64,000 nt of DNA from an uncultured Bacteroidales bacterium (GCA_902766045.1 CACXCA010000005.1:1704-65703), one strand, 5' to 3'. Shown: positions 5,981 through 47,460, counted from the stretch's first letter. Numbers and translations are program-made. The notes: generated by a model not told the origin, from the letters alone.

Positions 5981-5988
5981 GTTAGGTT

Positions 5989-13576: not shown

Positions 13577-13674
13577 TCCCTATATTGTCAAACCCTTTAC
13601 GTCTTATGAAAGAAAATTTGAGGGTGTATCAAATTGTTTTGATACACCCTCTTTCCTTTTATGCAGGGTTAGTT

Positions 13675-16600
13675 TTATCTAATCAGTGTGACAGAACCCT
13701 TCCGTTCTCCATTCTTGTGTACTTCTTTGAAATCACTTTCCCATGTGACTACATAACCATATACTCCGAATGGTGCAGGTTCTCCGTTGTAGGTACCGTC
13801 CCATTCATCCTCTTTAGTGAATCCTTCAAACATGATGGTTCCTTCACGGTTGTATATGATGAAGTGGAAGCTAGTCATAAATTCAGTTCCTAAGAATCGG
13901 AATACATCGTTCAAACCATCGTCATTAGGAGAGAAGGCATTTGGTGCCCAGAAGTTCTTCCATACCCAGATTGTTGAGTCTCCAACGTATTCACAACCTT
14001 TTTCATCAATAGCCAATGCAGTTACTACAAATGAGTCGCGTACAGATGGATTAGGGTATCGATACGTTGCTTCTACACCTTGTACTTCAGTATTATAATC
14101 GTCTCCCGTATTCCAATACCACTTAGCGTGACGAGGATATATACCTTTCATTGTGATGACAGGATTCTCTTCTACGATGATGCTTGGAGTGACAGAGAAC
14201 TCGATAGGTAAGAATGTCAGCGTATCTACTGTCATTGTATCTGAACTTGTACATCCGTTAGCATCAGTACCAACCACGGTGACCGCTGTTTCTTGGTCAA
14301 TCACTGCATATATATGGTCGGACATGTTACCTGAGATTTCTCCATTCTTAGGAACACTGCTCCATTCATAAGAGATAGCGTCACCATGAGCGGAGATATC
14401 CACACGGGTGTCGGTGCCAGGACAGCCTTCGATAGCATTTTGTTTCATCCATACATGAGGACGTTTGTTAACTCTTACCTTTACATCTTTTCTGCTTTCA
14501 CATCCGCTTTCTGATGTACCTATGACGGTAAAGACATTATCTTCTTCTATGTTTTGTATCAAAATTCTACCTTCTTTCTCGTTGTTCCATTTGTATGTTG
14601 CTGCACCTTCAGCGAGCAATACGGCGGCATCACCTTGACATACTATAGAGTCTCCGGTTACACGAATGTTTGGTTTTACGTGAGCTGTTACGTGAATCTC
14701 CATCTCGGTCGTACATGCACCTTTTGTTCCTGAAAGTGTGATACGAGTGTTGCCTTCAGGCATAAAGATAAGTGAGTCGCCTGTGACATTCTTGTTGTTG
14801 AAGTTCCATGTATAATGCTCTGCGCCATGAGCATATAGTTTTGCAGGATTTCCAACACATACAACATCGATACCAGTATAATTGATACTTGGACTCTCTT
14901 TCAATGTAAGCAGTTTATACTTAGTACTTTCACAACCATTTTTGTCTATAGCTTTTGTAAAGATATAGGTGGAAGTGTTTACTTCAGTTGCAATGGTTTC
15001 ACCGTCTCTACTGATCGCATCATCCATTGTGTTAGTACCGAATCCCCAGTAGTAATTTTCTCCATCACCTTTAGCTGTAAGTTGGACATAGAATCCACGG
15101 CAGACACTATCTTCACCTAGGATTTCAAAGTTTGGAGAAGGATTGATGGTAACAGGAACATTGATAGTGGTTTGACATCCATTCAAGTCTGTACCCGTCA
15201 ATGTGAATTTACTATTTGCTTTAGGATAAACTTCCAAATGATCGGTGTTGTTTCCTGTACTCCACTTGTATGAGGCAGCTCCGTAAGCTGTCAGATCCAA
15301 CTTGTGACCTTCGCAGATGTTTGTAACACCTTGGAAGGTAACATTCGGTTTTGGAAGAACGCTAATAGGAATGCTTAACTTGGTTGAACAGTGGTTGGCA
15401 GTACCTTCAACAATATATGTTTTATTGTTTGTTGGATTATCTGTCATGGTACCTGTTGTGTTCTCATTGTCATGAGACCATTTGTAGGTTGCAGCACCCA
15501 CCACATTAAACTTAGCCAAATCGCCTGCACATACTTCGCTTGGACCTGTATAGGTTAGGATAGGGTATGGATAGCACTTGATGTTATGTATCTTTGTTGA
15601 TACACATCCTTTCGCACTGATTGCTTCTACAGTGAATGATGTCGCATTGTTGATGATAGGAGTGATAGCGTCTGAAATAGCTCCGTTACTCCATGTGTAT
15701 CGAACTGCATCACCATCTTCAATGTACAGATTTACTGCATCACCTTGACATGCGTAGGTTGGTCCTTGAATCTTAAAGGATGGCAAAGAATCTATGTGGA
15801 TAGTGTAAGATTGGGTGTTCTTACATCCGTTTATATCCTTACCAGTGACGGTATATGTTTTGGTCTCTGTCGGTCTGTCAGTAATGATACTTGCTTTAGA
15901 ACCAGTACTCCATTCGTAGTTCATTGCACCGGACGCTGTTAACTGAATGGCTGAATTGAGACAAACTGACGACGGACCAGAAATCCAAATATTTGGCAAT
16001 TGAACGACATCAACTTGGAATGAAATAGAGCTTTCGCATCCAGAATGATTACCTACTACGTTATATGTAGTTAAATTCGTTGGTTTATCCTTCAATGTGA
16101 ATGTGCTTCCTTCGTAAGTCTTATCTTTCCAAGTATATCTATCAGCACCTTGGATGGCAATATTGATGGAATCGCCAGCACAGACTTGTTTTGGTGCATT
16201 ATAAACTAGTTCAGGATAATCTATATTGCGGATAGTGTGAGTTTTGGTATTTACACATCCGTATGCATCTGTACCAGTTACGGTAAAGTTTTGATCCTTC
16301 GTGATAACTGGATAGACGTTGGCATCTCTTTCTCCTGTACTCCATGCATATTCTGAAGCTCCGTCTGCTTTTAGGTGAGCTACGCTACCATTACAGATAC
16401 TATCATCACCCGTGATGGTGATAGTTGGTAATGCATGTACAATGACTTCGAATGGTTCTGTCGTGAAATGACATTTATGTTCATCTGTACCGGTTACTCT
16501 ATAATATACCTTTTGTGCGGTAGTGGTGGCTTCAGAAAGGGTACTTCCTGTTGCACCATTGCTCCATTCATAAGATTTTGCACCACTAGCGGATAGATTG

Positions 16601-19600
16601 ATGTTCTTTCCAAGACAAATATCACGATCACCGGTAATCCAAACATATGGCTTAGGAAGGATTGAAACAGTGAATTGTTCTTTTGTCTCACAACCATTCT
16701 TTGATCCGATGACGTAGAATGTCTTGCTGTTCAACATGTTTTCTTCAGAATAGGTTTCGCCAGTTGAACCATCCTGCCATGTATATGTTGAAGCTCCACT
16801 TGCGGTGACAGTGAGATTGTCGCCTTCGCAAATGCTTTCTGGAGCATTGGTTGTGACTACAGGATAATCTTTCTTATACACCGTCTTTGTCTTCGTTGTT
16901 TTACATCCACTTAAGTTTTCACCAATTACAGTATAGGTGGTTGTTTGGTTGATGATAGGATTGATTGTATCCTTCAACTCACCTGTATTGGTCCATGTGT
17001 ATGTTGTCGCATCTCCTTTGACATACAATGTGGCAGCGTTACCTACACAGACATCGTTATCTCCGTAGATCTCAAATTCTGGAAGATTATTAACTTTCAG
17101 AGTAAATTCATTACTCCAGTTAGAACATTTGTTAGCATCTGTACCATATACCTTATAAGTAGTACTTTCAGATGGCTTCTCCGTACGATCTGTTGTTGTT
17201 ACACCATCGCTCCATACGTAACTTACACCACCATTTGCAGTTAGGACGGATTGTTCAACGCCTTTACAAATTTCTTCTTTGTTTGTTGAGATCCAAATAT
17301 TAGGCAATGGCATTACTTGGACAGCTACTTCTTCCTGACTTGTACATGTTCCAATCTTACCAATAATTACGTATGTGGTATCTTTAACTGGTTTGTCAAC
17401 AAATTTACCATTAGGAATTACTGCTCCGTATTCATCTGTATATGAATTAGCACCTGTAATACTAATAGTAGCTTCGTCTCCATCACACACATAGTTCGGA
17501 GCTGTAATCTTCAAGTTCGGAACCTCTTTTGTTGTAATGGTAAAGTCTGCTTTGTTTTCACAACCATTGAGATCTTCTACCTCAACAGTGAATGTGCTCT
17601 TTTCACGAATGATTGAAGTAATCTGTGGTACGGATTCACCACTATTCCATGAGTATGACTTAATAATCTTTGAGTTGCTTACTGCAGTAAGGGTAACCTC
17701 ACTGTTTTCGCAGACAGCATCTACACTTAAGATTTTTACATCAGGCAATGGGTTGACAACTACTTCAAATTCAGCTGTGTTCTTACATCCGTTTTCATCT
17801 TGACCAGTAACATAATATGTTGTGGTCTCAGTAGGTTTTGCAGTGATGTCGTCTGTAGTGGCGAATACCTCAGCATTTTTATCATCAGTTAATGCCCATT
17901 TGTATTTGCCAGCAACACCTTCAGTGGCGTTTAAGATAATGCTGTCGTTCATACAAATTTCATTGTCTGGATCATTTGTGCTGATTAGTATAGAAGGAAG
18001 AGTCCATACGCCAACATTTATTACTTCTGTAGTGGAACATCCGTTTGTTGTACCTGTCACAACGAAACTTCTGTCGTCAGTCATTTTTTCTCTTATTGTT
18101 GAACCAATAACAGTATTATTCGTTGAATAGATATCGAATATGTTCTTTATGTCCACATTCTCCCAGACGAAGCTACTTGCACCAACAACAGATACTACAG
18201 CTGTGTCGTTTTGACATACATGTTCAGGTGCTTTGATATCCAGTACAGGGAATGGCTTAGTCGTAACTAGAACAGTATCCGTGTTCTCACACTGATTGAT
18301 GTCAACACCTTTTGCAACAATGTATTTCTGACCTTCTACAATCGTTGTTAAATCTTCACCTGTTGCTTCTGTTTTCCAAGTGTCAGTTTTTTCTTTTGCA
18401 GTGTACCATGTATAATCGAGTGCACTACCTGTTACTGATTTAGAGATCTCTGTGCCGTTGCAGATGATAGATGTACGATCACCCTTTATTGTCACATTTG
18501 GTAGAGGGTTCACTTTAACTTTGAATGATCTGTCAGACATACAATCATGTTCGTCCTTCGCTCTTGCAGTGAAGGTGTATGTTGTTACGGCAGAAGGTAT
18601 CTCTTGGTAAACATCGCCAGTGTAGTTCTTACCAATCCATTCGTATGTATATTTATCTGTTCCATTGGCTGTGGCTTTTATGGACAACTCTTTGTTGAGA
18701 CAGATAGAACTTGTTCCGTCTAATGAGAAGTCAGGTAATGGCCATATACCAATGTTGATAGGAAGTGATGTCGAACATCCGTCTGTTGTACCGATGACAG
18801 TAAATGTTTTCTGAGAGTTCAATTTTTCTGTTCTTGTGGCATCGGTTGATTGATTATCAGTCCATTCCCATTCATCAGCTCCGCTCAGATTGATAGTGAT
18901 ATTCTGTCCTTTACATACGAAGTCGTATTTCGTATTCGTCTCGTAGGTTGGAGTAGGGTATTCCTTTACTCCTACAGTGATGTCACCTTCGCTTACACAA
19001 GTATTCATGTCGGTGGCAACAACGTGGAAGGTGACAGATTTCTCATCCATGCTATTTGGCGTAACTTTCGTCGTGATGGTTGAGGAAGAACCGATGACGG
19101 TGGAATTGCCTTTTATAGTCCACTCATAATAACTTGCTGAACCATTGGCTACGAGAGTAGCTTCTGTTCCACGACACACATCTGCAACAGGAGGAATGGT
19201 TAAAGTAGGATGATCATAAACAATGATGCTTTGAGTGGCAGTGTTTTTACATCCATTGACGTCTTCTCCTCTAACTGAGTAGGTTTTAGTGCCGCTGGTG
19301 GTTGGTTTCACGGTTACTTTGTCCGTGGTTTTTCCAGAAGGGATGATCCATTCATATTTTCCACTTACTCCATTGATAGCTGTCAGCTTGACTGATTTGC
19401 CTAAACAAATATCAGGTTTGCTAGCTTCAATCTGAATATCAGGCAATGACCAGATGTTGATGGTTGTATCAATTCTTCTTGTACAACCTTTTGTGTCAGT
19501 ACCTTCAACCCAAATGTTAGTTGTTTCCTCCAAGTCGTTTAATGTGATTTGAGAAGAAGAACTATTGTTGAACCATTTGTAGTAGTTGGTGCCGCTGACA

Positions 19601-22600
19601 GTTAATGTTTTGTCTTCACCGAAGCATACATAATCACCTCCGTCGATATCTAATGCTACATTAGGAAGAGGATTAACTTTTACAGTAGCCTTCTTGGTTG
19701 TCTTACAACCTTCTGTTGACATACCGATTACTATATATTGTTTTGTATCGTCGATTACTTCTGTCAAACGAACGTCGCTCTTGAATCCTTCACCCCAATC
19801 ATATGATAGTCCATTGTTGCTTGCCGTGATTTGTGCTTCATCGCCGGCACATATTGGGCTGTTGGTGACAAGATTGAATGCAGGATCAGCATATACAGAT
19901 ACGGTAACCTCTTTGCTGCCTACGCAACCCTTCTCATCAGTCCCTTCTATTATATATTTCGTAGGAGTTGAAATAGCTCCTGTTGTGTAAGTGGCTTTTG
20001 ATGAAAGAGTCGTCGTGCTATTGTTCTTGTGCCATCTATATTTCGTAATAGTTGATGCACTTGAAGCACTAAGAATAGCTTTGTCCTTTTTACAAACGGT
20101 TGTGTCTTTTGCTAAGATAGTTGGCAATGTCCATACACCCACGTTGAAATCTTGTGTAGTAGTACATTGTGATACCTTATCAGTAACGTCAACTGTAAAG
20201 TTGGTACTTTGCTTGATAGTACGTGAGATGGATGCGTTTGTCTCGTTAACATCATGATTCCATAGATAATCACATGTCATAGCAGAACCATCTGGATAGG
20301 TGGCGCTTGCCGTGATAGTGATGTCGGAGTTCTTACAAACTGCCATTGGATTATCGATGGTTACGACAGGGTAATCATACTTCTTAATGAAAATCTCTTT
20401 AGATGTAGAGTCGCAACCAAAGCTGTTCCATGCTCTAACAGTGAAGGATGTATCGCTTGTAATCTTTGGCATGTAGATTTGTGAACGAGACACGATATTA
20501 CCATACTTGTCTTTCCATTCGTATGACAATGCATCATTTGAAGCTTCCAGTGTGGCAATTGTACCTTCACAGTAACCTTCTTTATGACTAACAGTGAATT
20601 TAGGAAGTTCATTGATGTTAACAGTGATCTTGTCTTTGTTTATACAGCCGTTGATATCCTTACCCCATACTTGAACCTCTTTTTGCGTACGTAAATTTAT
20701 CAACTCAATCCAGTCGGTCTCCTCGTAATTATCTTCACTGTCCCAACTGTATGATACACCACCCTCAGCAATGATTCTTACACTAGAACCTTTACATATA
20801 GACTTGCTAGGAGAATCTTGAATCTTGATGTTTGGAGATGCAGATACTTTTACGGTAACCGTTTCTTCGGACTTACATCCGTTCATGGTTGCAGTTACAT
20901 AGTATGTCTGGTCTTTGTAAAGATTTCCAGTAGATACTTCACGTTTGGATGAGAGTACTGTGCCAGCTGAATTGCCCACGTACCATTTATAGCTGGCAGA
21001 CTCATTCTTTCCTTTCATTGTTCCGCTCAATCCTTCACATACGTATGGAGGAATTTCAAGCATCATGTTAGGATATGGTTTGGTGCCTATATTTATGGTT
21101 CTTTTATCTACACAAGTAGTGGTAGGATCCATCGCATATACTGTGATATTTGTTGGCTCATCTATTTGATAGTTATAACTGAATAAGGATTGATAACCCT
21201 TGTCTTCCCAGTTGTATGTCAACTTCTTGTTATTAGTCTTCACAGTTGCTTCTTTTCCTTCACACACTTTTGAACTTGATGTTAGTGTGAATTCAGGAAG
21301 AGAGTTGACAACGACTGTTGTACTGTCAGCATTCTTACATCCATATTCATCTGTTACAACCACTTTGTATTCTGTTGTTTCTGTTGGTGATTGAGAGATG
21401 GATCGTTCGTTGCCAATTGTGTTTTTAGTCTTGTTGTTAATCCATTGATAGTTTGCTAATCCTTGGGTCGCCTCCAATGTGAATGGAGAGCCAAAACAGA
21501 TAGCTGCATCGCCTGCGATGGATACAAATGGCAAATCACGGGTGGTGGCAGATAATGTCTGGCTTGTCGTACATCTTACCTCATCGCTGCCATATTGCTT
21601 ATATACGTATGTTGCATTGGCAGTGAAGTTTTCAAATGTAGTTGCAATCTTTTGTGTGATTTGCTCTGGGTGAAGTGCTTCCGTTATATTTCTGCCTGCA
21701 GCATTTCTCCATTCAATTATAGCGTTGGCAATCGGTTGGATGGATAGGGTAGCATTGTCGCCTTTGCAGACTTCCACATTGTTTTTGTCAACTACGATGG
21801 TAGGATACTCTTTTGCACGTACATAGAATGTATATGTGGAGTCGCAAGAGTGTTGGTTGATAGCTGTGACGGAAACTTCAACGTCATTGTCGATATCGTT
21901 GATTTCAACATAATCACCATGTCTCTCTACACCATTGATAAACCACTTATATGATACATTGTCATTGTTATTGACGTTAGCATATAGGGCTGTACTTCCG
22001 CCATGACATACCACTGTGTCTCCAGAAATGCTGAACTTAGGTTTTTCGTGGATATAGACGTTAACTTCATCCTTGTTTTCACATCCGTTAGCATCCTTAC
22101 CCCAAACAAACACTTTAGTTTCTTGGTTCATGTTTTCTGATGAATAACTATTATCATCTTCGTAATCTCCGTCATTCTTATTCCATCGATATGATTCACC
22201 ACCAGAGGCTGTCAGTATGAGGGTACTTGTACGACATACGGCTGTATTGCCTTCTTCAATCTTGATGGTTGGCAATGGATTGAAGCTAACTGTAACTTCT
22301 TTGGTTTGAGTACATCCATTGTTCGTTCCTTTGACTGAGAAAGTCTTTACGTCGGTAATGTTATCTGTGACATACGTATTTTCTTTCAGAGTTTCATCGC
22401 CATTCCATATATATGTCGTTGTTCCAGAAGTGATTGCATCTGATACAACAAGGGTGGCCGGTGTGTTATAACATACAGGGCTGTTGCTTTGGATGGATAG
22501 ATCTGGATTTGGCTTCCATACTAGATTATGAAGAACTGGTTCTGACTCACATCCGTTACCATCTTTTGCTTTAATCTCAAATGATTTCTGTCCTGTTTGG

Positions 22601-31600: not shown

Positions 31601-34600
31601 ACGGTATATGAAGTTGTGTCTTCTACAGTAGGACGATATATTGCACCACCTCCAATGATTTCTCCACCTCTGGTCCATTGGTAGTCGTTGTTATCTGCAC
31701 CTGTCGCAGTCATTTGATAACTGTCACCTTTACATACTTCTCCTTCTCCATTGACAAGACCATTGATATAAAGAGTAGGTTTCTTGTTGACGTTGACCTT
31801 GTATGATGCAGATGCAGTACATGCTGTAGTTGCGTCTGTTACGGTTACTGTAGCAGTGGCTTCTGATGCATTTGTTTCTGGCTTTAAGAAGTATGAATTG
31901 GTAACATCAGTAGCGGATCCATTCCACTTGTATGATACTGTATTAGGAGATACAGCTTTTAGTTCGATTGAATCGCCCTCACAGATGCTGCTTCTTCCAT
32001 CTTCATTTGTAATAGTTACAGAAGGTATGTCTTTTACTTCTATATCGATTGTGTCATGTTTTGTACAGCCTGTTGTCGCATTGGTTAATGTGGCTGTGAT
32101 GTGGTATGTTTTTGCAACATTCAATGTGGTGTCAAAAGAGAAAGTATGGAGGTCGCTTCTGCCAATCCATACAATGCTGGCATTTGTCTCTGTTGTGGAT
32201 GCTGTAATGGTAACTTTTTCGCCACGACAGATTGGGTTCTTGCTAGCCGAAAGTGTCAAGTTAGGTTCCTGTGCGACTTTTAAATTGAAATCGACAGGTG
32301 CTGATTCACAACCGTTAGTGTTTTTACCTTTTACTGTGTATATGTGAGGCGCAGAGATTCCTGTGATTTGGAAGTTGTCTGTTTTGTTATCTTGCTCAAC
32401 ATTATCAATATACCATGTCCAACCGTTGCTGCTCATGTTGGCATTGCCTGTTCCGCTCGCAATTAATTTTTCATTGTCACCTATACAATATTCTTTTGTG
32501 TCATCAGGCTCGATTTTGATTGTCGGCTTGGCAACGTATTGTATGAGTTTCGTGTCTGGTGTTGCAGGACAACCATTTTCACCTTTTGCATTCAATGTGA
32601 GTTGAATGTTATGCGTGACATTGTCGATTGTTATGGTGGATCCTTCACCTTGCCATGTTGCGTTGTCGTCACGAGTCCATTTATAGTCACTAATGCCTCC
32701 GATAGCTTTCACTTCCAATGTGCCATCTTCACATATCTCACCCTTGCCATTGTCGATACCGATGGCTTCTGGGGAGAAAACGTCAATGGTTATATCTTTC
32801 TGTGCCGTACAATTTTGTTCTGTGCTTGCAGTCACAACAAATGTCCGTTTGTTTGCAATTGGTGCTGTGGTGATTCTATTTGTTGTCTCACCATCGGTCC
32901 AATTCCATCTGCTTACAGCAGCTTGTGAATTTGTATTTGTGGCTTCGATGACAGTACTGCTGTCTTTACATACGACAGTTTTTGTGGCAGCCAAAGAGAG
33001 TACAGGGGTCTCCTTAGCTGTTACTTTCACCTTGGCAGTGTTGGTACAACCTATGTTGTCATACCCCTTTACTGTGTATGTGGCAGTTTCGTTGATTTGT
33101 GGATTGATAGCGTTGCATGCAGTACATGCATAATCTTTTGTCACATTGTTTTCTGTTGTATAAGTCCATGTGTATGATGTGGCTCCTTCAACTTCAATAG
33201 ACAGAGTGCTTCCTTTACATATAGAGGTGTCTTTTGTAGGAATCTTGATTTTGACATTAGGGTGATGGTTGACAGTGATTGAATATGGGTCACTTATGCC
33301 TACACAACCTTTGTCATTTTGTCCTTTCACATAGAATGTTGTTGAATTTGGATCTGCATCGAAAGTGACAACATCTGTTGTATATAATGGATTTGCAAAA
33401 TTGTTTGTCGTGCTCCATTTGTAGTTGCCAGCGGTTCCTCCTTTTGCTGTCAGAGAGACAGGTGAACCTTCACAATAGGTAGTGGAACCTACGATATAGA
33501 TGTTTGGCGGCGTTAGTACACTTAACGAGTAAGTGGTATCTACCTTACATCCTTCTTTCTCGATGGACAATGTAACAATGTAGTTGAAAATGTTTTCTCC
33601 GTTGAAATCAACGTTTCGATCATAGAATGTGTTGGTGTTAAGTCCGCTTGTCTGATGATTATTGTAAGATGGCGTCCATAAATAGGTGTAGCCTTCGAAG
33701 TTTTCCACTCCTAATTCAACGTCTAGTCCATTACATACATAGTCCTTGTTCGTATCAAGATTTTTGATTATAGGATATTCTTTTGCTCTGATACTTGTGG
33801 TGTCAGGTTCACTCTTGCAACCATGGACATCTTGTGCAATGACTACGAAATAGGTTGTTTGCGATAGAGGAAGTGAGATGTGATCGCCTGTCGCATCTCC
33901 GATATGGCTAGTAAGATCCTCTTTATATAATGTCCAGTTGTATGTGGCATAAGTTTGTCCGTCAACTTCTGCAGACAGTTCAGCAATTGAGTTGACACAA
34001 TATGCGTCTTTTGCTGGTGTAGCATGTACAACAGGATTGTCATATACAGGCATTTTTGCAGTTGTATGACCTTCACAATTATGATCATCCTTGGCTTTTA
34101 CAAGATATGTGTAGGTGCCTGATTGAGTAGAGTGTATTTGGATTTCACTGTTGTGATCTCCTGTGCCACTCATTGGTATTGTGTCAATTGTGGTACTTCC
34201 CGTTCTTTCTACGATTTCAAACCATGAGTAGTCTTTTCCTGTTCCAGCTCCGTTGGCAACAAGTATTGTGTCAAAACCTATACAAAGACCAGCTTCATGA
34301 CCTGTAATAGCCAAACCTGGAGCAGGTCTTACCACGATACTTTTCCTTAGTGAACTTGTACAGCTGATGGTTTTTCCATCTTCTGTATAGTTTTTCGTTC
34401 CCAATAATGTGTAATATACAATACCAGTACCCGAAGGCTTGTGCGTCAGTGATTGTTCTCGTCCAACAGTGTCGTTGTCGAAAATCCATATATATGAATC
34501 TGCATTTGTACCCGTTAATGTTGTGGCGGTATTCTCACACATTTCATCATCTAGGGTAATGCCAATTTCAGGATAAGGTTTTGTCTTGACGGATACAGAT

Positions 34601-37600
34601 TCTTCAGAGGAACAATTGTATGCATCGGTACCTTTTACCAAGTATGTCTTGTCACTTCCTACAGTCACTTCGTAGGTGCTGTTTTTGGTTCCGTCGTCCC
34701 ATACATATTCAACAATCTTTCGTTCGTTATCATTGGCATTGTCATCTATTGTATAGAGAGTGTCTCTTTCGTTTACACAGACTAATCCTTGTTTTGCGTA
34801 TGCCTTAAATGATGGAGCTTCGTGGATGGTGATAGTCATGCTGTCAAGTTTAGAACAACCGGTAAAGTTGTCCTCTGCATATCCACGTACGTAGTATGTG
34901 ATGGAACTTAAATTAGAAGCAGGAGTGTGTCGCATATCTCCAGTTTGGCTAATTGTAGTGGAGAAGTCTCTTGATGTACTCCATTTATAACTATTAGCAC
35001 CGGAAACGGAGAGGTGAACTTCGCTGTTTTTACAAATATGGCCTGCACGGTATCCATGATCCATGATGGTGATCTTAGGTGCATTTTGTACAGTTATATT
35101 GAATTCTTTTTGAGAAGAACAGAGCACGTCACCATGTTTTTTGAATCCCTCCACATAGTATGCCTTGGTAGTGACATTAGGTGTATCTACCATCGTCAGT
35201 TTTAATTCATTTAGATAGTGAGGGTTTACACCACCTGTCCATACAGAACATGAATCAACTTCTCCATTGGCGGAGATTGTTAAGGTGATAGGTTCACCTT
35301 CACATACAGTTGTGCTGGATGAATTGTCTAACTGGATGTTAGGTACATTATGTACCTGAATAGTATCTTTCTTTTTACTGCTACAACCGTTGTTGTTAGT
35401 ACCCAATAATTCAAGGTGGTATTCTGATTGATTTTCAGTAAATAGAAGAGTTAGATTCTTGTTTTGGAAGTTTGTGTTATTGTCGAGTGTCCATACGTAA
35501 CTTGTTTCATCTTCTGCGCCTCCGGCTGTGAAGGTGTAGTCGCTACCCGCACATACGTCATGAGGACCGTTGATGGTTAGGTCTGGGCTTTCCTTTTTGT
35601 ATATATATACAGAGTCCATGTCAAAACACTCATCAACAGTTGTACAAGTTGAATAGAATAGAGTGGAGTCTGTAATCTCAGGTGTTGTGTAATTGTCGGA
35701 AGGTAAATGATAATTTGAGTTGGTCTCTCTTAAAAGTTCCTTGTTTTCGTTGTGCCATTTAAAGTCGCAATCCATGTTGCTAGTGGCACTTAGCTTGATG
35801 CTGTCACCTTCACAGACTTCAACGTAGCGAATTGTGTTGCCGTGGCTGTCTGTAGTAAACTTCATACCCTCAGCTGCCAAAGTGATGGTAGGACGTTCTT
35901 TGACGGTGATGTTGTGGTCACCCTCATAGATACAAGTACGGTCGGTTATTGTGTGACCGTCTAAGTCTTTGTTTTCAATACTCTTAATTTGTAGTGTATA
36001 TGTTGCAGTTCCGTTCGTTGGACTAGCCATATAAGAAACCGCATTTTCACCTGTGAATATATTATTTAAGGTATTTCCTTTCTCATCTTTCCAATAGTAT
36101 TCAAAGGCGTTGCCATAGTTGTTGGTATATGCACCACCATTGGTTGAACCAAGATAGGCTGGTGTGACAAGTCTTAATTCCTTAGAACTGCCAAAGCAGA
36201 CAGTGTTATCACCTTGTATCTCAACATTAGGACGACCTGTGACATGGATAGTTTTACGGACTTCCTTTCGGCAATCATTTTTGGTGATTAAAGTCATAAC
36301 GATGTCGTAGGTGCATGTCACCCCAATTTGACATGGTAAAATGATGGAAGTGCTATCACCTTGTATCTGCACCTTGTTAGCTTCATTTTGCACATTGTTT
36401 TTCCAGTAGGTCCAGATGACATTTATGATAGAATCTGGTTCTTCGAGCTCCCCATTGTGCATGATAGGTGTGATAGTGGATTTATTGGTAAGTAATACTT
36501 CGTTGTAACACGCCACCTCTGCATCAAAATCAAGCGTAAATGGATCTTTTGTTAAGGTGAATTTGTCTTCAGTTTGTGTACAAGTTGAGCCACTATTGAT
36601 TAAGTTTGGATCGTTATCGTTATTATGCATGGTAACGGTGTATTCCTTGTTTGCCTCGATTTCTGTTTTAAAAATTGTTGCTTCGTTCGATGTGGCAGTG
36701 CCAGAAATTTGAGGAGTCCATTGATAATAAGAGAATCCTTCAGGCGCAGTTAATTCAATCGGTGCTCCGTTATCACAGTTTTTGATGATAACTTCAAAAG
36801 GTTTTGTTTCGGCAGTGAAATAACCGTATGTGCGGTGATAACCAGCTCCATATCGCTGATGGAATACTTTTTTGTCTTCATGTTTTATGTTTCTACAATA
36901 TGGACATGTGTAGGTTCCTTTTACTCCATATTGATCTGATGTTATATTTGTTGGAGTGATATCCGCAAAATAGTGCTGGCAGTTGTCACATACCCAAAGT
37001 TTCTCTATACAATCGTGATTAACTATTTCAATTGTAATTTCATCACCTATGAAATCTCTTAAATCGTATGATATAGTAGTCCAGTCTTTGAAATATGTTT
37101 TTTCCAAATATTCTGCTGGCAAGTATGCTTGCTGACAATATGAGTTACTTTGCACTGCGATTGTTCCTTCATCCAAGCATGTTCTAATGATATCTCCTGA
37201 TGAATTACATACATAGCATGTGTGAGCTAGAGAAGGATTGGTGTTTTCTAAATCCTCATAAATTAATGTATTTTTCTTGTTTGTACCATATGTACATTCC
37301 ACGCAAATATCTCTGTTTTCGATACGTGTCCGAGGCTCTTCATGTGATTTGGTTGTGACGGTCTCTGTTCCTATATAGTGGTAATAATAGCTTTGATTTG
37401 GCTGTTTTTCAAATTCACTGTTTCCGAAGTCGTCTGTTCGCAATGGTTGGTTATAATACACTCGAGTATTCCCATTGTTGTAGTAATATTTTCTTTGAGA
37501 AGTACTGTAATAGTATTGCCTATAGTTTGTTCTTCCATTCGATGTGTATGTTTCGTATGTGGACCATTTTTCTTTGGTTTCATCTATGATGGTCACATAA

Positions 37601-38502
37601 TAAGTTATTTCTACATCCTTGTTGATGCTTCTGATACATTGGAAGTCGTGCTTATTTGCAGAAGCTTTACACTCTGGACATTCCGTTAAGTCGTCTGTCT
37701 CTGCACAACCAGCAGTGTGAGTGTCGAAACCAGCACTTTCAGGAAGCGTTTCTTCGCAGACTTTACAATATGTGGAATAGCCGGAGATGGTGTGTGAGTT
37801 GGCTTTTGTAAGTCCATTGGAACTGTTTATTACACTTGAGTTGCATAGAGTCTCAGTATCTCCATTCTGTTTTTTGTGATGAATATATATAGCAAAAGGA
37901 GGCTTCTCGTTTTTATGATTATTGTTGAAGTCGGGGTCGTGTGATAATACAGCATATTTGTAAGTGAGTAACGTGGATTTATTATCTACGGTAAAAGTAT
38001 ATGTCATTCTCTCTGCCATAGCACGTTTGCACCATTGATATGGAGCGTCTTCTGTAGTCGGATTAAGAGGCGTGTCTAATGCTCTGTTTTCGGCATCTTC
38101 GCTTGAACCGATACGAACTGCATATGTGCTTCCATCTGGTACTTGTTTCAAATTGTCGCAGGCAATATTTTTATCGATACTTGCTGAACTCATAATTTGG
38201 AAGCCTCCATATATTGTACCTGTGATTTGAGCATCACGAACAGTCCACACGTCTGTTCCTGGCACAACAGATTGAGCCTCAGTTTTTGTGGTGGCTTCGA
38301 AAATGTCTGATATGACTAATGGCTGAAAATTATCCATAAAGCAAGATGGTCCATAATATCCATAATATCGTGTCCATCCTTCATAGGTTCCTTTTTCAAA
38401 GCCTAAGTTCGGAGTGCTGGAGTTCACATCGCTCGATTGTCCAAATGTGTTGGGATACCCTAAAAACATCAAACCGACCAATATTATCCACTTATATTTC
38501 AT
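13675..38502 (-). CDS. Giant (about 8,280 aa) T9SS type-B-CTD cell-surface repeat protein, SprB-class
   Basis: An uninterrupted ORF runs 13675-38526. The likely start is the ATG at 38502 (MKYKWIILVGLMFLGYPNTFG|Q signal peptide); 38526 is the alternative. The body is tandem ~80-90-aa modules, each with a conserved Cys pair ('..C.G....L.A.GA..Y.W...' then '...GC....'). The C-terminal ~90 aa, FWAPNAFSPNDDGLNDVFRFLG...IIYNREGTIMFE...WDGTYNGEPAPFGVYGYVV...GSVTLIR, fits the gliding-motility-associated (CHU_C / type-B) sorting domain. Confidence 0.92.
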   Translation of the reverse strand: MKYKWIILVGLMFLGYPNTFGQSSDVNSSTPNLGFEKGTYEGWTRYYGYYGPSCFMDNFQPLVISDIFEATTKTEAQSVVPGTDVWTVRDAQITGTIYGGFQIMSSASIDKNIACDNLKQVPDGSTYAVRIGSSEDAENRALDTPLNPTTEDAPYQWCKRAMAERMTYTFTVDNKSTLLTYKYAVLSHDPDFNNNHKNEKPPFAIYIHHKKQNGDTETLCNSSVINSSNGLTKANSHTISGYSTYCKVCEETLPESAGFDTHTAGCAETDDLTECPECKASANKHDFQCIRSINKDVEITYYVTIIDETKEKWSTYETYTSNGRTNYRQYYYSTSQRKYYYNNGNTRVYYNQPLRTDDFGNSEFEKQPNQSYYYHYIGTETVTTKSHEEPRTRIENRDICVECTYGTNKKNTLIYEDLENTNPSLAHTCYVCNSSGDIIRTCLDEGTIAVQSNSYCQQAYLPAEYLEKTYFKDWTTISYDLRDFIGDEITIEIVNHDCIEKLWVCDNCQHYFADITPTNITSDQYGVKGTYTCPYCRNIKHEDKKVFHQRYGAGYHRTYGYFTAETKPFEVIIKNCDNGAPIELTAPEGFSYYQWTPQISGTATSNEATIFKTEIEANKEYTVTMHNNDNDPNLINSGSTCTQTEDKFTLTKDPFTLDFDAEVACYNEVLLTNKSTITPIMHNGELEEPDSIINVIWTYWKNNVQNEANKVQIQGDSTSIILPCQIGVTCTYDIVMTLITKNDCRKEVRKTIHVTGRPNVEIQGDNTVCFGSSKELRLVTPAYLGSTNGGAYTNNYGNAFEYYWKDEKGNTLNNIFTGENAVSYMASPTNGTATYTLQIKSIENKDLDGHTITDRTCIYEGDHNITVKERPTITLAAEGMKFTTDSHGNTIRYVEVCEGDSIKLSATSNMDCDFKWHNENKELLRETNSNYHLPSDNYTTPEITDSTLFYSTCTTVDECFDMDSVYIYKKESPDLTINGPHDVCAGSDYTFTAGGAEDETSYVWTLDNNTNFQNKNLTLLFTENQSEYHLELLGTNNNGCSSKKKDTIQVHNVPNIQLDNSSSTTVCEGEPITLTISANGEVDSCSVWTGGVNPHYLNELKLTMVDTPNVTTKAYYVEGFKKHGDVLCSSQKEFNITVQNAPKITIMDHGYRAGHICKNSEVHLSVSGANSYKWSTSRDFSTTISQTGDMRHTPASNLSSITYYVRGYAEDNFTGCSKLDSMTITIHEAPSFKAYAKQGLVCVNERDTLYTIDDNANDNERKIVEYVWDDGTKNSTYEVTVGSDKTYLVKGTDAYNCSSEESVSVKTKPYPEIGITLDDEMCENTATTLTGTNADSYIWIFDNDTVGREQSLTHKPSGTGIVYYTLLGTKNYTEDGKTISCTSSLRKSIVVRPAPGLAITGHEAGLCIGFDTILVANGAGTGKDYSWFEIVERTGSTTIDTIPMSGTGDHNSEIQIHSTQSGTYTYLVKAKDDHNCEGHTTAKMPVYDNPVVHATPAKDAYCVNSIAELSAEVDGQTYATYNWTLYKEDLTSHIGDATGDHISLPLSQTTYFVVIAQDVHGCKSEPDTTSIRAKEYPIIKNLDTNKDYVCNGLDVELGVENFEGYTYLWTPSYNNHQTSGLNTNTFYDRNVDFNGENIFNYIVTLSIEKEGCKVDTTYSLSVLTPPNIYIVGSTTYCEGSPVSLTAKGGTAGNYKWSTTNNFANPLYTTDVVTFDADPNSTTFYVKGQNDKGCVGISDPYSITVNHHPNVKIKIPTKDTSICKGSTLSIEVEGATSYTWTYTTENNVTKDYACTACNAINPQINETATYTVKGYDNIGCTNTAKVKVTAKETPVLSLAATKTVVCKDSSTVIEATNTNSQAAVSRWNWTDGETTNRITTAPIANKRTFVVTASTEQNCTAQKDITIDVFSPEAIGIDNGKGEICEDGTLEVKAIGGISDYKWTRDDNATWQGEGSTITIDNVTHNIQLTLNAKGENGCPATPDTKLIQYVAKPTIKIEPDDTKEYCIGDNEKLIASGTGNANMSSNGWTWYIDNVEQDNKTDNFQITGISAPHIYTVKGKNTNGCESAPVDFNLKVAQEPNLTLSASKNPICRGEKVTITASTTETNASIVWIGRSDLHTFSFDTTLNVAKTYHITATLTNATTGCTKHDTIDIEVKDIPSVTITNEDGRSSICEGDSIELKAVSPNTVSYKWNGSATDVTNSYFLKPETNASEATATVTVTDATTACTASASYKVNVNKKPTLYINGLVNGEGEVCKGDSYQMTATGADNNDYQWTRGGEIIGGGAIYRPTVEDTTSYTVKGSNVNGCYGETNFTVNTKPIPSFTATNANICSEQTATIKLTGDATSYTLTWAGNGHAEIAANQSNTETNYQTETLNESRTYSITGTLNGCTSEAKSATVTVNARPDIKISSDPISRAICLGDYATLTASGAGINGSYTWEVNNGLTQDLNDPSKARVAPTTTGEIKYKVTGLDGSCEGEDSIMITVDTLPVIHINANNTNICVNDPVTLTASGARTYIWKDGTSERTGTSITPTIEGPISFTVDGTDDNGCKGTSTPYSITPNSKPRPQWDEISICKGDNATIKINNVTKIIWAIDGVTTESIGGASPSRTFNNITDETTYRITVENSTGCTMDTFVTVHVTDKPVISFTGASKICSGEPFQLTAAAANCDFVWSSSSSSTYTAEGAVLTEGENKLTYTGSNAYKTVTYHVVATTKGTLQCKSENDYNLSVYKNPTVTINKPNGSLVCEGSSISLEANKDFTTYAWSVRENEDFVLGSNKTIDLTPTQERTAYVLKVIDENGCIGHDTTEVERKSKPTIQFNYTEVCEKDKGTISISNLSNDVNYYWTYNGANATLNNSGSIEMTLNHAEMVTVTARLKALSTCETTESYNATVKLKPVFSVTTDKPDNTVCSDEPIRIYGSNDAYTYSWVYGNNQTSTDKELTHTISTTEEASREYTATATDGGCSSTESVTVYIHPKATFDVRQVNAACTDKPVTLVCENGTATNFLWLDADSTSTGIQGSSNQFTLAENVNTVTGYVRGWNANNCPTTKKFTITKGTAPTITVNGNDPICSGTKPTDITLSGAESYIWKDGDKQIGTGSSIPDIEALTSDKTLTVIAGDNTANDKCTIEIPIVISVKPTPSISLDVEKKNVCPNTDNKITAYVTAGSSITWEKKNGENWGSISNSTNPITVNSSATGYVTYRGTASLTTDNKTCTNNAEISYEVQAEPTVTILDNTPNNSGNICKGDPVQVYTEGAYNSYQWYSVASTGETTQLSSTINSWTETPEETTTYKLVVTNDYNCTGEATKKITVNSKPIVGVTAEQICPATKAILHVGANSTADSFDWPTNGSYNGSTKTWTSNDNLNGRRGYSITAKLGSCTKDSTVYVELKNAPTANILVNGQETNGAAVDLCSNTQFTLKVTPGSASTQFNDATWTWGETGVSKTGVEITEQNGLDQSRNYSVNITDETTNCSTTLTQQVNIIRPKTIEIFGNEEVCYGKDATYTAEGAESYTWTIKNKVTGDIYNNVVYNNVAQTSITIKNITSDLTIVATGTDEYHCNSKSEPKDISVIAEPNITITPAENDRHVCSGLSIPLTATPTSNTASVQWQNAPAGATYNTPATVTNNTKVVTYTVTVTDQGCITEVPVDVTIHALPVISITGDKAFCEGGSSTLTATENFGTALNYQWVGHTAGENPITVSEAGTYEVTGTDPTTNCVSETKSITIEEYDKPSGISITTNDAPCKDSIITLTITGDNASLYSYEWYRKDNGSNITLGNAKDLSVTVSSSSASETYYVTAKQSYGLSDGSTLVCQADEIQYEVIGRDVPTWNFSDITACEGESKPLSVINYANGTDFDWFKEGWTSHKTGTFITEKIEGTVTFTVTGTLNGCSATKPLTVNSTPLPVINSIDVPSFICQDDKITINADIADETGVEYAWKIGRKDYTQTEYTTKTITDYEPTNTGDYSYSLIITQNGCSSKEKTGSFTVNPKPTITFNGELQYCPGATSSIGINGNMTSIVWYSYDKGTESKGSIVMSGSGEDKLAEVINEPTWYYVEVNDGNCSNHDTIELTNYPTPHFDISGTETICAGGETTLQISGTNAGDKVYIKEENGEKEIKGSYTFKPITTTEYSLRVVSDNGCENDTTVTIQVIEKPDITINNQIDGSANICDGDKIDLTAASTAADNITWSNDLGNESTITVNPEAQTTYTATASIQLAADQECSNQTTFTVNVNKLPSAEIEGDKHVCDGEEAIFSVKDANTSAYSYVWLDNGSTATSRTETISKDTTYKLVVTNIETQCSDTVEHAITKENIPTITLSENNISVCKGDVMKDVTASSAEGERFEWHDENDMSIADDAILGGITINDARTFTAYTYTHYNCKASAELSVNYWNNPVVNIEGDKLTCDKGTARLKAVASEGKSPYKYTWIGENYSTNTNEETVTTSALSETTGTYTFQVKVEDDHGCQSKLSDPFTVSVSKTPEITIEGVSPVCVGSAANLTAKGAGELGTYEWSTGEIGDNIQPIINGETEFTVKGTTKDGCSATSAPFTVNKKDKPVIVVSDATICLNGSKQVTLATEANNSPTFRWLSDTEEGEYTSQNTGATRTLSPKTTTRYTVEATENGCKNEATFTITVNPLPEVTINGYAANGESSLCIDDDITLNANEGFESYEWWKGQTTDGTSTSVTTSQYSINKAKSTDDGYYTVKVTDNNNCSNNASYYVNVNPLPKIQLNGDAAACEGNNITLTTKKVSGSSTPTSYNWGDVNPDRTATSSVVQITKDTTFRVTVSDQNGCTYTAEKSVQVITNPEFELDYSADICYKDTAEIEIKNAAGTYTYTWPDKTSSTSTRWKESSVKAANVVPYEYEVSAKKKVTINNKSFTCSHSETARISVHELPVFTLSGPAFICVGENTAEISIEGPSNSTYEWQSGSKWKTDSTHTVVQDNSFEVTPNSGNVTSYYIVKGTTTYTNPNYTCSNVSQPIGIYRATTPTFELDNENVGVCYGENVTLQMNAGDLNASSLSWSNGQSNTKSILVENVTEDATYNVVATASSSCEATKHFYIMVKDKPVISITEAPEYVCMNNEAKIRLSINGSTISNTDSIEYNRELLDLTQEWPISKKLTDDETFSFAGYSSYLISNTKGTETFTSTLVCRSDAEVTIPVKPIPTVTISGASSLCSGESITLTAAATGTTGPYNYVWTDTTSGNQSSQNDELFTVTPLTYTTYKVIAKDHFGCSDSAFHDVNVDTIPTFTVTDNMGGAVCDGGTAILTASNKQLQYNWGSGDFSNKNTYETPEITQTGQKSFEIKAKDGNGCESEPVLHNLVWKPNPDLSIQSNSPVCYNTPATLVVSDAITSGTTTYIWNGDETLKENTYVTDNITDVKTFSVKGTNNGCTQTKEVTVSFNPLPTIKIEEGNTAVCRTSTLILTASGGESYRWNKNDGDYEDDNSYSSENMNQETKVFVWGKDANGCENKDEVNVYIHEKPKFSISGDTVVCHGGSTALYANVNNNDNVSYKWFINGVERHGDYVEINDIDNDVEVSVTAINQHSCDSTYTFYVRAKEYPTIVVDKNNVEVCKGDNATLSIQPIANAIIEWRNAAGRNITEALHPEQITQKIATTFENFTANATYVYKQYGSDEVRCTTSQTLSATTRDLPFVSIAGDAAICFGSPFTLEATQGLANYQWINNKTKNTIGNERSISQSPTETTEYKVVVTDEYGCKNADSTTVVVNSLPEFTLTSSSKVCEGKEATVKTNNKKLTYNWEDKGYQSLFSYNYQIDEPTNITVYAMDPTTTCVDKRTINIGTKPYPNMMLEIPPYVCEGLSGTMKGKNESASYKWYVGNSAGTVLSSKREVSTGNLYKDQTYYVTATMNGCKSEETVTVKVSASPNIKIQDSPSKSICKGSSVRIIAEGGVSYSWDSEDNYEETDWIELINLRTQKEVQVWGKDINGCINKDKITVNINELPKFTVSHKEGYCEGTIATLEASNDALSYEWKDKYGNIVSRSQIYMPKITSDTSFTVRAWNSFGCDSTSKEIFIKKYDYPVVTIDNPMAVCKNSDITITASATYPDGSAMTCDYLWNHDVNETNASISRTIKQSTNFTVDVTDKVSQCTTTQDFNVGVWTLPTILAKDTTVCKKDKAILSASSASTITKYRWHKNNSTTTLSSKATYTTGAISTPTKYIIEGTDEKGCVGSKEVTVSVYADPAFNLVTNSPICAGDEAQITASNNGLSYDWGEGFKSDVRLTEVIDDTKQYIVIGMSTEGCKTTKKATVKVNPLPNVALDIDGGDYVCFGEDKTLTVSGTNYYKWFNNSSSSQITLNDLEETTNIWVEGTDTKGCTRRIDTTINIWSLPDIQIEASKPDICLGKSVKLTAINGVSGKYEWIIPSGKTTDKVTVKPTTSGTKTYSVRGEDVNGCKNTATQSIIVYDHPTLTIPPVADVCRGTEATLVANGSASYYEWTIKGNSTVIGSSSTITTKVTPNSMDEKSVTFHVVATDMNTCVSEGDITVGVKEYPTPTYETNTKYDFVCKGQNITINLSGADEWEWTDNQSTDATRTEKLNSQKTFTVIGTTDGCSTSLPINIGIWPLPDFSLDGTSSICLNKELSIKATANGTDKYTYEWIGKNYTGDVYQEIPSAVTTYTFTARAKDEHDCMSDRSFKVKVNPLPNVTIKGDRTSIICNGTEISKSVTGSALDYTWYTAKEKTDTWKTEATGEDLTTIVEGQKYIVAKGVDINQCENTDTVLVTTKPFPVLDIKAPEHVCQNDTAVVSVVGASSFVWENVDIKNIFDIYSTNNTVIGSTIREKMTDDRSFVVTGTTNGCSTTEVINVGVWTLPSILISTNDPDNEICMNDSIILNATEGVAGKYKWALTDDKNAEVFATTDDITAKPTETTTYYVTGQDENGCKNTAEFEVVVNPLPDVKILSVDAVCENSEVTLTAVSNSKIIKSYSWNSGESVPQITSIIREKSTFTVEVEDLNGCENKADFTITTKEVPNLKITAPNYVCDGDEATISITGANSYTDEYGAVIPNGKFVDKPVKDTTYVIIGKIGTCTSQEEVAVQVMPLPNIWISTNKEEICKGVEQSVLTANGGVSYVWSDGVTTTDRTEKPSESTTYKVYGTDANKCSNWSNEFTLKVNNLPEFEIYGDNDVCVGNAATLYVKGDATTYTWTNTGELKDTINPIINQTTTYTVIGENLSGCKTTKTKTVYKKDYPVVTTNAPESICEGDNLTVTASGASTYTWQDGSTGETYSEENMLNSKTFYVIGSKNGCETKEQFTVSILPKPYVWITGDRDICLGKNINLSASGAKSYEWSNGATGSTLSEATTTAQKVYYRVTGTDEHKCHFTTEPFEVIVHALPTITITGDDSICNGSVAHLKADGASEYAWSTGERDANVYPVITKDQNFTVTGTDAYGCVNTKTHTIRNIDYPELVYNAPKQVCAGDSINIAIQGADRYTWKDKTYEGSTFTLKDKPTNLTTYNVVGNHSGCESSISFQVDVVQLPNIWISGPSSVCLNSAIQLTASGAMNYEWSTGSKASIITDRPTETKTYTVTGKDINGCKNTQSYTIHIDSLPSFKIQGPTYACQGDAVNLYIEDGDAVRYTWSNGAISDAITPIINNATSFTVEAISAKGCVSTKIHNIKCYPYPILTYTGPSEVCAGDLAKFNVVGAATYKWSHDNENTTGTMTDNPTNNKTYIVEGTANHCSTKLSIPISVLPKPNVTFQGVTNICEGHKLDLTAYGAASYKWSTGNNTDHLEVYPKANSKFTLTGTDLNGCQTTINVPVTINPSPNFEILGEDSVCRGFYVQLTAKGDGENYYWGFGTNTMDDAISRDGETIATEVNTSTYIFTKAIDKNGCESTKYKLLTLKESPSINYTGIDVVCVGNPAKLYAHGAEHYTWNFNNKNVTGDSLIFMPEGNTRITLSGTKGACTTEMEIHVTAHVKPNIRVTGDSIVCQGDAAVLLAEGAATYKWNNEKEGRILIQNIEEDNVFTVIGTSESGCESRKDVKVRVNKRPHVWMKQNAIEGCPGTDTRVDISAHGDAISYEWSSVPKNGEISGNMSDHIYAVIDQETAVTVVGTDANGCTSSDTMTVDTLTFLPIEFSVTPSIIVEENPVITMKGIYPRHAKWYWNTGDDYNTEVQGVEATYRYPNPSVRDSFVVTALAIDEKGCEYVGDSTIWVWKNFWAPNAFSPNDDGLNDVFRFLGTEFMTSFHFIIYNREGTIMFEGFTKEDEWDGTYNGEPAPFGVYGYVVTWESDFKEVHKNGERKGSVTLIR

Positions 38503-38790
38503 GTTTGTGAGTATACTTATATTCATATTTAACTGTCTTTTAGTTCTTTACTTTGTTTCGTTACCTACTAAGGTTCAATCTGTAAATTTATCATTAAGTT
38601 TTTTCTTTACCAAATTTAAATCTTGTTAAAAAGGGTTTTCTTAGTTTTTTTTTATTAAATGTCGGTTTGTGAAAATTGTACAATGATGGCTCGTGTTTTT
38701 TAATGATATGCTAAAATATTGAAAGATAGTATTTTATATTTTCTACGTAAAAAGATCTTTATTCTTAATCAAAAAAAATAGAACTTTATA

Positions 38791-38844: not shown

Positions 38845-38917
38845 GGCGGATTAGTGTAGTGGCCTAGCACGTAGCTCTCTCACGGCTTAGACCCGGGTTC
38901 GATTCCCGGATCCGCTA
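38845..38917 (+). tRNA. tRNA-Glu (anticodon CUC)
   Basis: The cloverleaf was read by hand. Acceptor GGCGGAT/ATCCGCT (G1-U72 wobble), D-arm GTGT..GCAC, anticodon loop CT-CTC-AC, 4-nt variable loop (typical of Glu), T-arm CCGGG-TTCGATT-CCCGG. CCA is not encoded. Confidence 0.8.
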
Positions 38918-38922
38918 CGAAG

Positions 38923-38954: not shown

Positions 38955-39092
38955 GTTTTATCTTTGCATATATTCGAACGACTCATTAATTTAATGATAG
39001 TAACTATACAATTTCAAGGTGTTTCTTAGTACTTGTTGTTACTAAGAAAAGCGAAGCTTTTATATTTTGATAATCTTATATTTCTAAATTAT

Positions 39093-42287: not shown

Positions 42288-42303
42288 TACTAAACTTAGA
42301 AAG

Positions 42304-44605: not shown

Positions 44606-44614
44606 AAATTTAAT

Positions 44615-45661: not shown

Positions 45662-45667
45662 TAAATT

Positions 45668-46468: not shown

Positions 46469-46469
46469 A

Positions 46470-47450: not shown

Positions 47451-47460
47451 TGTGAATGAT

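Follow-up and report, generated by a model that had tools for sequence, protein, structure and literature searches.

This locus raises a simple question: what might an uncultured gut Bacteroidales bacterium do with a protein of 8283 amino acids (aa)? The gene for it occupies the minus strand of a 64,000-nt stretch of DNA (GCA_902766045.1 CACXCA010000005.1:1704-65703), the whole of which was analysed and is referred to as the window; we call the gene and its product the giant gene and the giant protein. The answer that we favour, with moderate confidence, is that the giant protein is a fibrillar adhesin, exported through the T9SS (type IX secretion system) and anchored to the cell, whose distal head resembles carbohydrate-binding modules (CBMs) and binds glycans. 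This answer is carried by the domain composition of the protein, which has the general layout of GhpA, a solved T9SS fibre anchored in the outer membrane at its C-terminus, and by the occurrence in the same lineage of another type-B T9SS cargo, a C10 peptidase with a CHU_C domain. The open reading frame (ORF) and its parts are as follows, from the N-terminus to the C-terminus.

13675..38526, minus strand: complete coding sequence of the giant protein, 8283 codons plus stop, one open frame from an ATG start
38440..38526, minus strand: signal peptide, aa 1–29, inferred from the hydropathy profile and the sequence, with predicted signal peptidase I cleavage at TFG↓Q30
36751..38439, minus strand: head, aa 30–592, of an unnamed family, its beta-sandwich (jelly-roll) core interrupted by insertions, from profile search and an AlphaFold2 (AF2) model
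37129..37791, minus strand: head insertion 1, aa ~246–466, Tyr/Cys-rich, with two CxxC...CxxC pairs (254/257+283/286 and 408/411+437/440), missing from compact family members
36847..37008, minus strand: head insertion 2, aa ~507–560, with a third CxxC...CxxC pair (513/516+541/544), paired beta-hairpins in the model at a predicted local distance difference test score (pLDDT) of 85–89
14137..36741, minus strand: stem of ~92 tandem Ig-like modules (Pfam Ig_7, PF19081), aa ~596–8130, from Pfam and a self-trained hidden Markov model (HMM)
14137..21459, minus strand: C-terminal third of the stem, aa ~5690–8130, with a period-3 super-repeat, from module identity by offset
13954..14136, minus strand: degenerate last module or linker, aa 8131–8191, with a weak partial module match
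13678..13947, minus strand: type-B T9SS C-terminal sorting domain (CTD), aa 8194–8283, from PF13585 and TIGR04131

A sequence-only reading of the window had already proposed much of this layout, and in that respect it was borne out. The ORF is single and uninterrupted, with 323–738 stops in each of the remaining five frames across the same stretch, and the predicted cleavage before Gln, the non-repetitive Cys/Tyr-rich head, the diverged modules with their Cys pair, the type-B C-terminus and the Bacteroidales-like context were all found as described. In its mature form, the giant protein would have a mass of ~902 kDa and a pI of 4.7.

Most of that mass is in the stem, where the self-trained HMM delimited 92 modules in tandem between aa ~596 and 8130, repeating at a median of 81 aa. 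Two Cys residues are conserved in every module, and pairwise identity between modules averages 23% and reaches 45% at most. The Pfam scan was made on three pieces that together cover the whole giant protein. On these pieces, Ig_7 (PF19081), labelled “Ig-like domain CHU_C associated”, scored 169, 263 and 223 bits (cut-off 27.3; E 2e-50, 1e-79 and 3e-67), with 20 stretches individually above threshold. Ig-like models, which the sequence-only reading had put forward for searching, were matched in all three pieces. PKD models, which that reading had named as well, stayed below threshold, and the SprB repeat (PF13573) gave no match at E ≤ 0.01 in any of the pieces. Along the stem, the Cys residues alternate at spacings of ~25–26 and 53–59 residues, and the pair inside a Pfam Ig_7 match lies ~56 apart (e.g., C1685 and C1741 in match 1678–1753). 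The stem is rich in Thr (14.1%) and Ser (8.5%), with 2.6% Cys and 4.5% Tyr, and all 54 sites that match the O-glycosylation sequon D[ST][AILVMT] lie within it. In the C-terminal third, mean identity is 0.31–0.32 at module offsets 3 and 6 compared to ~0.26–0.28 elsewhere, the best-matching module pairs are found at these same two offsets, and the last ~20 modules are shorter, with a period of mostly 71–75 aa. The sequences suggest that this third is a younger sub-array, formed by more recent expansion in blocks of three modules.

A 3000-aa piece of the stem matched exactly one sequence in the PDB, that of grappling hook protein A (GhpA) from Aureispira sp. CCB-QB1 (PDB 9flp and related entries; bioRxiv 10.1101/2024.01.29.577165), with an E-value of 6e-65 over eight stretches. 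The CTD region also matched the C-terminus of GhpA (residues 5817–5883, E 6e-7). GhpA has 5,898 aa and begins with a Sec signal peptide and an adhesin-like hook, the latter distal and N-terminal; its 52 Ig-like repeats make up the stem of a fibre of 240 nm, and its T9SS sorting domain is membrane-proximal; it assembles as a heptamer, with intramolecular disulfides between neighbouring Ig-like domains and O-glycans on Ser and Thr, and homologs of PorP and PorE (ghpB and ghpC) are encoded downstream of its gene (bioRxiv 10.1101/2024.01.29.577165). The two proteins are alike in having a signal peptide, a distal N-terminal head, a varying Ig-like stem with Cys and abundant Thr and Ser, and a type-B CTD. 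They differ in size (8,283 aa and ~92 modules in the giant protein, 5,898 aa and 52 repeats in GhpA) and in host, an anaerobic gut Bacteroidales in one case and a marine Saprospiria predator in the other. As far as the sequences tell, the kinship of the two stems is remote, at the level of the domain family only. A residue-level alignment with GhpA, from which the disulfide pattern would have been transferred, failed, as short pieces gave no match.

We considered the possibility that the giant protein forms an appendage of the GhpA type, in which protomers lie side by side in a rigid, disulfide-stapled hollow rod that captures cells or particles. GhpA is the only solved match to either the stem or the CTD, and the order of domains, the two conserved Cys residues per module and the Thr/Ser-rich stem are shared. 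Nevertheless, we regard such a rod as unlikely: the head is unrelated to the hook module (residues 26–1402), although the full GhpA sequence was in the PDB library searched; the giant locus has no counterpart of ghpB/ghpC (PorP/PorE genes) downstream; the likeness vanishes when single pieces of 444–515 aa are used; and no type VI secretion system or predatory context was seen. Equally doubtful is a bolder version, in which strictly anaerobic gut Paludibacteraceae of ruminants and horses build a GhpA-like rigid, multimeric appendage of ~0.3–0.4 µm that spears or tethers plant particles, protozoa or other microbes and bears, at its tip, a new receptor-binding domain with three conserved Cys4 (zinc-ribbon-like) knuckles. 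If true, it would add to the T9SS appendages a new functional class, one from beyond the predatory and gliding lineages, and possibly the largest T9SS cargo described.

The two ends of the giant protein carry the signals that would govern its export. Residues 1–29 have the predicted form of a Sec signal peptide, with a basic n-region (K10, K12) and a hydrophobic core (W13–L22) followed by ...PNTFG↓QSSDV, in which the residue before Q30, at −1, is small; the predicted cleavage site of the closest orthologs is ...YA↓Q(T/N)S. At the opposite end, the CTD scored above the curated cut-offs of both type-B models, with 53 bits against PF13585 CHU_C (cut-off 27, nearly the whole model covered) and 51 bits against TIGR04131 (cut-off 35, model positions 3–84 of 85). 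A 73%-identical CTD in a related metagenome-assembled genome (MAG) is named [quoted passage not shown] by NCBI. The degenerate module or linker at aa 8131–8191 probably belongs to an extended type-B secretion signal; such signals have been reported to require 150–235 aa (PMC12618676).

The sequence-only reading had assigned the giant protein to a “SprB-class”, noting that it was larger than SprB of Flavobacterium johnsoniae (8,283 vs. 6,497 aa). Both proteins do belong to a class of huge, repetitive surface filaments with a type-B CTD for the T9SS. However, the stem of the giant protein consists of Ig_7 modules instead of SprB repeats, none of which was detected, and whereas SprB has an operon of the sprCDBF type, the giant locus has no sprC/D/F context and no sprF-like gene after the giant gene. 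The assignment thus holds, by sequence, for architecture and export signal only; membership in the SprB family was rejected on the lack of PF13573 repeats, and “SprB/GhpA-like architecture” is the better description. The combination of Ig_7 (PF19081) and CHU_C (PF13585) is also that of the “CHU large proteins”, or generic gliding motility-associated CTD proteins, an annotation class first noted in Cytophaga hutchinsonii and without characterised function, within which the giant protein is set apart by its exceptional length and unnamed head.

Gliding itself is a still weaker explanation than the rod. It would make the giant protein a mobile adhesin, SprB-like in function, whose CTD loads it on a gliding track, along which it is driven over the cell surface. 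The genus Paludibacter, to the family of which the host belongs (see below), was reportedly described as non-motile by Ueki et al. in 2006, and the giant locus has neither SprB repeats nor a downstream sprF. A literature search for T9SS or gliding genes in Paludibacteraceae gave nothing usable. The presence of a type-B CTD, and the name that NCBI gives to a related one, would fit a gliding adhesin, as would the finding that F. johnsoniae type-B cargo not encoded beside a PorE-like gene go to the gliding machinery (PMC12618676), since no such gene is adjacent here. In that organism, it depends on the pairing of CTD and shuttle whether a cargo goes to the gliding track or to a static, PorE-linked anchor, and orphan type-B cargo use a shared shuttle encoded elsewhere, a single one serving three orphans (PMC12618676). 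The giant protein is, by its gene order, an “orphan” type-B substrate in the same sense, because no shuttle gene lies downstream. Another precedent is found in the non-motile Bacteroidales species Porphyromonas gingivalis, in which the single type-B cargo, PG1035, also an orphan, binds the core PorP–PorE complex and is static, and where type-B cargo are retained on the surface by PorP-like proteins (PMC9143113). PG1035, as a type-B cargo from a non-gliding member of the Bacteroidales, suggests static anchoring via a core PorP, and by analogy its situation is more likely to be the closer parallel to the giant protein than that of F. johnsoniae.

The head, at the opposite end from the anchor, is non-repetitive and rich in Cys (3.9%) and Tyr (8.3%). 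It had no match in Pfam, including the Pfam CBM families, or in NCBIfam, and aa 1–700 had none among PDB sequences at E ≤ 1. A word-indexed search of 5.8 billion clusters found three relatives only; when 1.84 billion representatives were searched exhaustively with a profile, 719 matched at E ≤ 1e-3, 88 of them at E ≤ 1e-10. Ten of these relatives were scanned with Pfam. Eight of them end in a T9SS CTD, which is CHU_C (type B) in six and Por_Secre_tail (type A) in two; PKD domains occur in seven and Ig_7 above threshold in four, and in none of the ten does a Pfam family cover the head itself. Among the 104 representatives with a match across the core, nearly all have the domain at or close to the N-terminus. 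A typical head in this family has ~300 aa (median 304), and that of the giant protein is nearly twice as large because of the two insertions. All six CxxC positions are kept in four orthologs with 50–53% identity (L010, L011, L013 and L014), and five of the six in a fifth (L012), while the motifs are lost in more distant family members. The unnamed head family and its conserved Cys4 insertions are the genuinely new parts of the giant protein.

In the AF2 model of the full head, the core beta-sandwich was predicted with confidence (pLDDT 80–97), while insertion 1 had pLDDT <50. A fold search with this model found nothing at E ≤ 1e-3, as 280 of the 592 residues had pLDDT <50. A compact natural homolog was modelled instead (pLDDT 84.7, predicted template modelling score 0.82), and its search against the PDB with Foldseek gave 18 matches at E ≤ 1e-3 (E 1e-5 to 9e-4, probability 1.0). 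These matches included TmCBM27, TmCBM61, CBM16, the porphyran-binding CBM 8xmz and the oligosaccharide-binding tailspike of Klebsiella phage K2-2, followed by slightly weaker ones to an alginate-binding CBM and to the Kgp K1 adhesin domain. Viral structures gave 66 matches at E ≤ 1e-3, mostly to tail fibres and receptor-binding proteins. The sole profile-sequence match of the head in the PDB, a weak one (E 0.17), was again 8xmz, which comes from a protein with a T9SS CTD. From these models, it is safe to state that the head core has a CBM-type jelly-roll fold, shared with CBM27, CBM61, CBM16, 8xmz and the glycan-binding domains of the Klebsiella phage tailspike, although it differs from the CBMs in being about twice their size, in having no sequence-level family membership and in its low TM-scores. 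That the head binds glycans is what we infer from this fold.

Several residues are invariant throughout the head family (W51, R138, E172, H204, W482, D505-C506, H564 and Y569). They could fit a ligand or metal site, yet may be catalytic. The head could then be an enzyme, a jelly-roll lyase or hydrolase, on a long tether, or the giant protein might be released or shed into a matrix, a biofilm or an S-layer-like coat, the coat being a role that the sequence-only reading had raised. The invariant His, Asp and Glu, together with the release of some T9SS cargo, leave some room for this set of alternatives, but we judge it to be just as improbable as gliding, since type-B cargo, where studied, remain bound to PorP-like proteins, the top fold matches of the head are binding modules rather than jelly-roll enzymes, and a linear array of 92 domains suits a fibre better than a two-dimensional lattice.

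None of this would matter if the ORF were an accident of assembly. From the base composition of the giant-gene strand, a stop would be predicted every ~16 codons, and the chance of 8283 codons without one is ~10^-239. Tandem Repeats Finder reported trivial micro-repeats only, and the longest family of direct DNA repeats is 72 nt, at 61–79% identity. A collapsed or expanded array is unlikely, because the giant gene has no tandem or long direct DNA repeats. By exact-protein look-up of the neighbouring PFK, the locus was retrieved from independent assemblies (ENA, Logan and NCBI), in which the gene is called at 8283 or 8295 aa, a difference of 12 aa, or is cut by a contig end; it is assembled intact in at least five other metagenomes. 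The C-terminal 3267 codons were compared with six other assemblies, one of them cut short. Nucleotide identity was 99.4% with zero indels, five assemblies being free of indels across 9.8 kb and the sixth, on a shorter contig, being concordant across its 7.9 kb. There were 39–49 synonymous and 6–12 non-synonymous differences, giving a ratio of non-synonymous to synonymous substitution rates (dN/dS) of 0.04–0.07. The giant gene is real and under strong purifying selection; this selection and the lack of long DNA repeats show that it is not an assembly artefact. Two large protein libraries did not return the 8283-aa protein itself, although the contig index contains the 8283- and 8295-aa calls. 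Very long proteins may be missing from these libraries, and their size distributions are thus unfit for judging how unusual the length of the giant protein is. Two antisense ORFs inside the giant gene, at 30626-31189 (+) and 31784-32347 (+), each encode 187 aa and are hydrophobic and mutually unrelated; they are most likely spurious.

The giant gene is not confined to one genome. A scan with one genome per GTDB species yielded 20 loci, of which 16 are in Paludibacteraceae/Bacteroidales MAGs, mostly of herbivore-gut origin, with head identities of 31–53%. In 15 of these 16, the frame that begins with the head is uninterrupted as far as the flank was fetched (3,587–3,940 aa) and, by the same module HMM, contains 33–39 contiguous modules; in the sixteenth, a contig end truncates it at 633 aa. 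The four non-Bacteroidales loci encode short proteins of 580–650 aa. On this distribution of sequences, the giant protein is a conserved feature of the gut lineage. The weakest alternative, that the ORF is a mis-assembled repeat array or a decaying pseudogene, to which any long repetitive gene in a short-read metagenome assembly is open, has next to no chance and is effectively ruled out by the divergence of the modules (average aa identity 23%, no DNA repeat >72 nt at ≥61% identity), by the intact, indel-free assemblies, by the selection just described and by orthologs in 15 further species-level MAGs, each with ≥3,587 aa of open frame. The housekeeping neighbours PFK and AsnRS have identical counterparts in MAGs that NCBI lists as Paludibacteraceae bacterium, and the related loci come, by record name, from buffalo reticulum and rumen, goat omasum, yak rumen and cecum, sheep rumen and horse faeces. 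The bacterium itself is an uncultured member of the Paludibacteraceae from ruminant guts.

The sequence-only reading had left the role of the giant protein open. Our data favour a static fibrillar adhesin with a CBM-like head, and its assembly can be pictured as follows. Sec and signal peptidase I would carry the giant protein to the periplasm, leaving Gln30 at the N-terminus, and its modules would fold there and form disulfides. The type-B CTD would then steer the folded protein through the T9SS translocon, and a PorP/SprF-type outer-membrane shuttle, presumably encoded elsewhere, would hold the C-terminus on the cell surface. The N-terminal head would be placed far from the cell by the ~92 Ig-like modules, serving as an extender; scaled by analogy from the 52 repeats and 240 nm of GhpA, the fibre would be ~0.3–0.4 µm long. 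The head, with its CBM-like jelly-roll core enlarged by Cys4-containing insertions, would be the ligand-binding tip, and its ligand would most likely be a glycan on plant particles or on other rumen cells.

Several observations weigh against this picture. No PorP/SprF or PorE gene is adjacent to the giant gene, and none was found by Pfam or NCBIfam among window ORFs of ≥150 aa, a view of T9SS and shuttle genes that covers this contig and the short flanks of the related loci. The resemblance to GhpA is only cumulative, in that stem pieces of 444–515 aa match nothing at E ≤ 1e-3. The Bacteroidetes O-glycosylation sequons are not significantly enriched in the giant protein (z = 1.7). TM-scores are low for the fold matches of the head (TMt ≤ 0.54, TMq ~0.3), and the invariant His, Asp and Glu of the head might just as well belong to a metal or catalytic site.

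The surroundings of the giant gene give it the appearance of a monocistronic unit, convergent with PFK and divergent from a tRNA and a glutaminyl cyclase gene. Two candidate control elements flank it.

13620..13651, no strand assigned: 14-bp palindromic hairpin, 24 nt past the giant stop, between the giant gene and the convergent PFK, from a scan for terminator-like sites
38611..38618, minus strand: TAAATTTG, which fits TAnnTTTG, the −7 promoter consensus of Bacteroidetes, and lies ~85 nt upstream of the giant ATG; candidate promoter by consensus match only

The hairpin is a candidate bidirectional terminator; the scan found three terminator-like sites, compared to 0.3 expected from shuffles. 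The −7 motif is not enriched across the window, so TAAATTTG is a match to the consensus and not evidence of function. It lies in a 500-bp AT-rich region upstream of the giant gene that also holds, on the opposite strand, a tRNA-Glu with anticodon CTC (38845-38918 (+)), which is located between the giant and glutaminyl cyclase genes and is the sole Rfam or ARAGORN match in the window.

The glutaminyl cyclase gene, at 39033-40082 (+), is closely homologous to the solved enzymes of Bacteroidetes: it matches PDB entries 4fuu/7d1d at E 1.5e-91, the Tannerella forsythia enzyme 6qro at 3e-89 and the P. gingivalis enzyme 6qql at 7e-70. Such an enzyme would be expected to cyclise Gln at an N-terminus, and the giant protein, after the predicted cleavage, would offer one in Gln30. 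In 8 of the 16 related loci the two genes are still a divergent pair, even if the polysaccharide locus next to them has been replaced; this may be simple synteny. In a related Paludibacteraceae MAG (L030), the giant ortholog likewise ends beside a convergent PP-loop gene, and a Peptidase_C10 protein with a CHU_C type-B CTD is encoded ~3 kb from its 3' end (L030:3362-4435 (+)). This peptidase is also without a PorP-like neighbour, and type-B cargo in the lineage seem generally to be unlinked to shuttle genes.

Beyond the glutaminyl cyclase gene is a polysaccharide or glycan biosynthesis locus at 40106-48069 (+), encoding a Wzx-type flippase, two GT4 and one GT2 glycosyltransferases, a Bac_transf initiating transferase and three proteins of no family. 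It varies between species and is absent beside the glutaminyl cyclase gene in L015, L016 and L025. On the other side, a second cluster of surface proteins at 23-11288 (+) starts with an MBG-domain protein that is cut by the window start (1924–2155 aa elsewhere), and continues with a 598-aa protein without a family, a 1208-aa GLUG-motif protein and a 558-aa outer-membrane beta-barrel (9612-11288), the start of which overlaps the preceding stop codon. No T9SS CTD was detected on the proteins of this cluster. The beta-barrel was considered as a PorP, SprF or PorE candidate and rejected, as it matched only generic OMP_b-brl models and, weakly, a TDE1717-family model. Towards the window end (62001-64000), G+C climbs from ~0.38 to 0.52, and a 778-aa ORF at 61271-63607 (-) has no Pfam or NCBIfam match.

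The giant protein overturns no current model, but is a very large addition to a known adhesin class. The type-B T9SS pathway of non-gliding gut Bacteroidales probably handles a cargo of ~900 kDa, exceeding SprB or GhpA. The N-terminal head, with 719 representatives, defines an unnamed domain family, carried by T9SS cargo in eight of the ten relatives scanned, that is a candidate for a new Pfam or CBM family. For the organism, an adhesin of 0.3–0.4 µm could plausibly help to determine how an abundant, uncultured rumen lineage attaches to fibre or to other cells.

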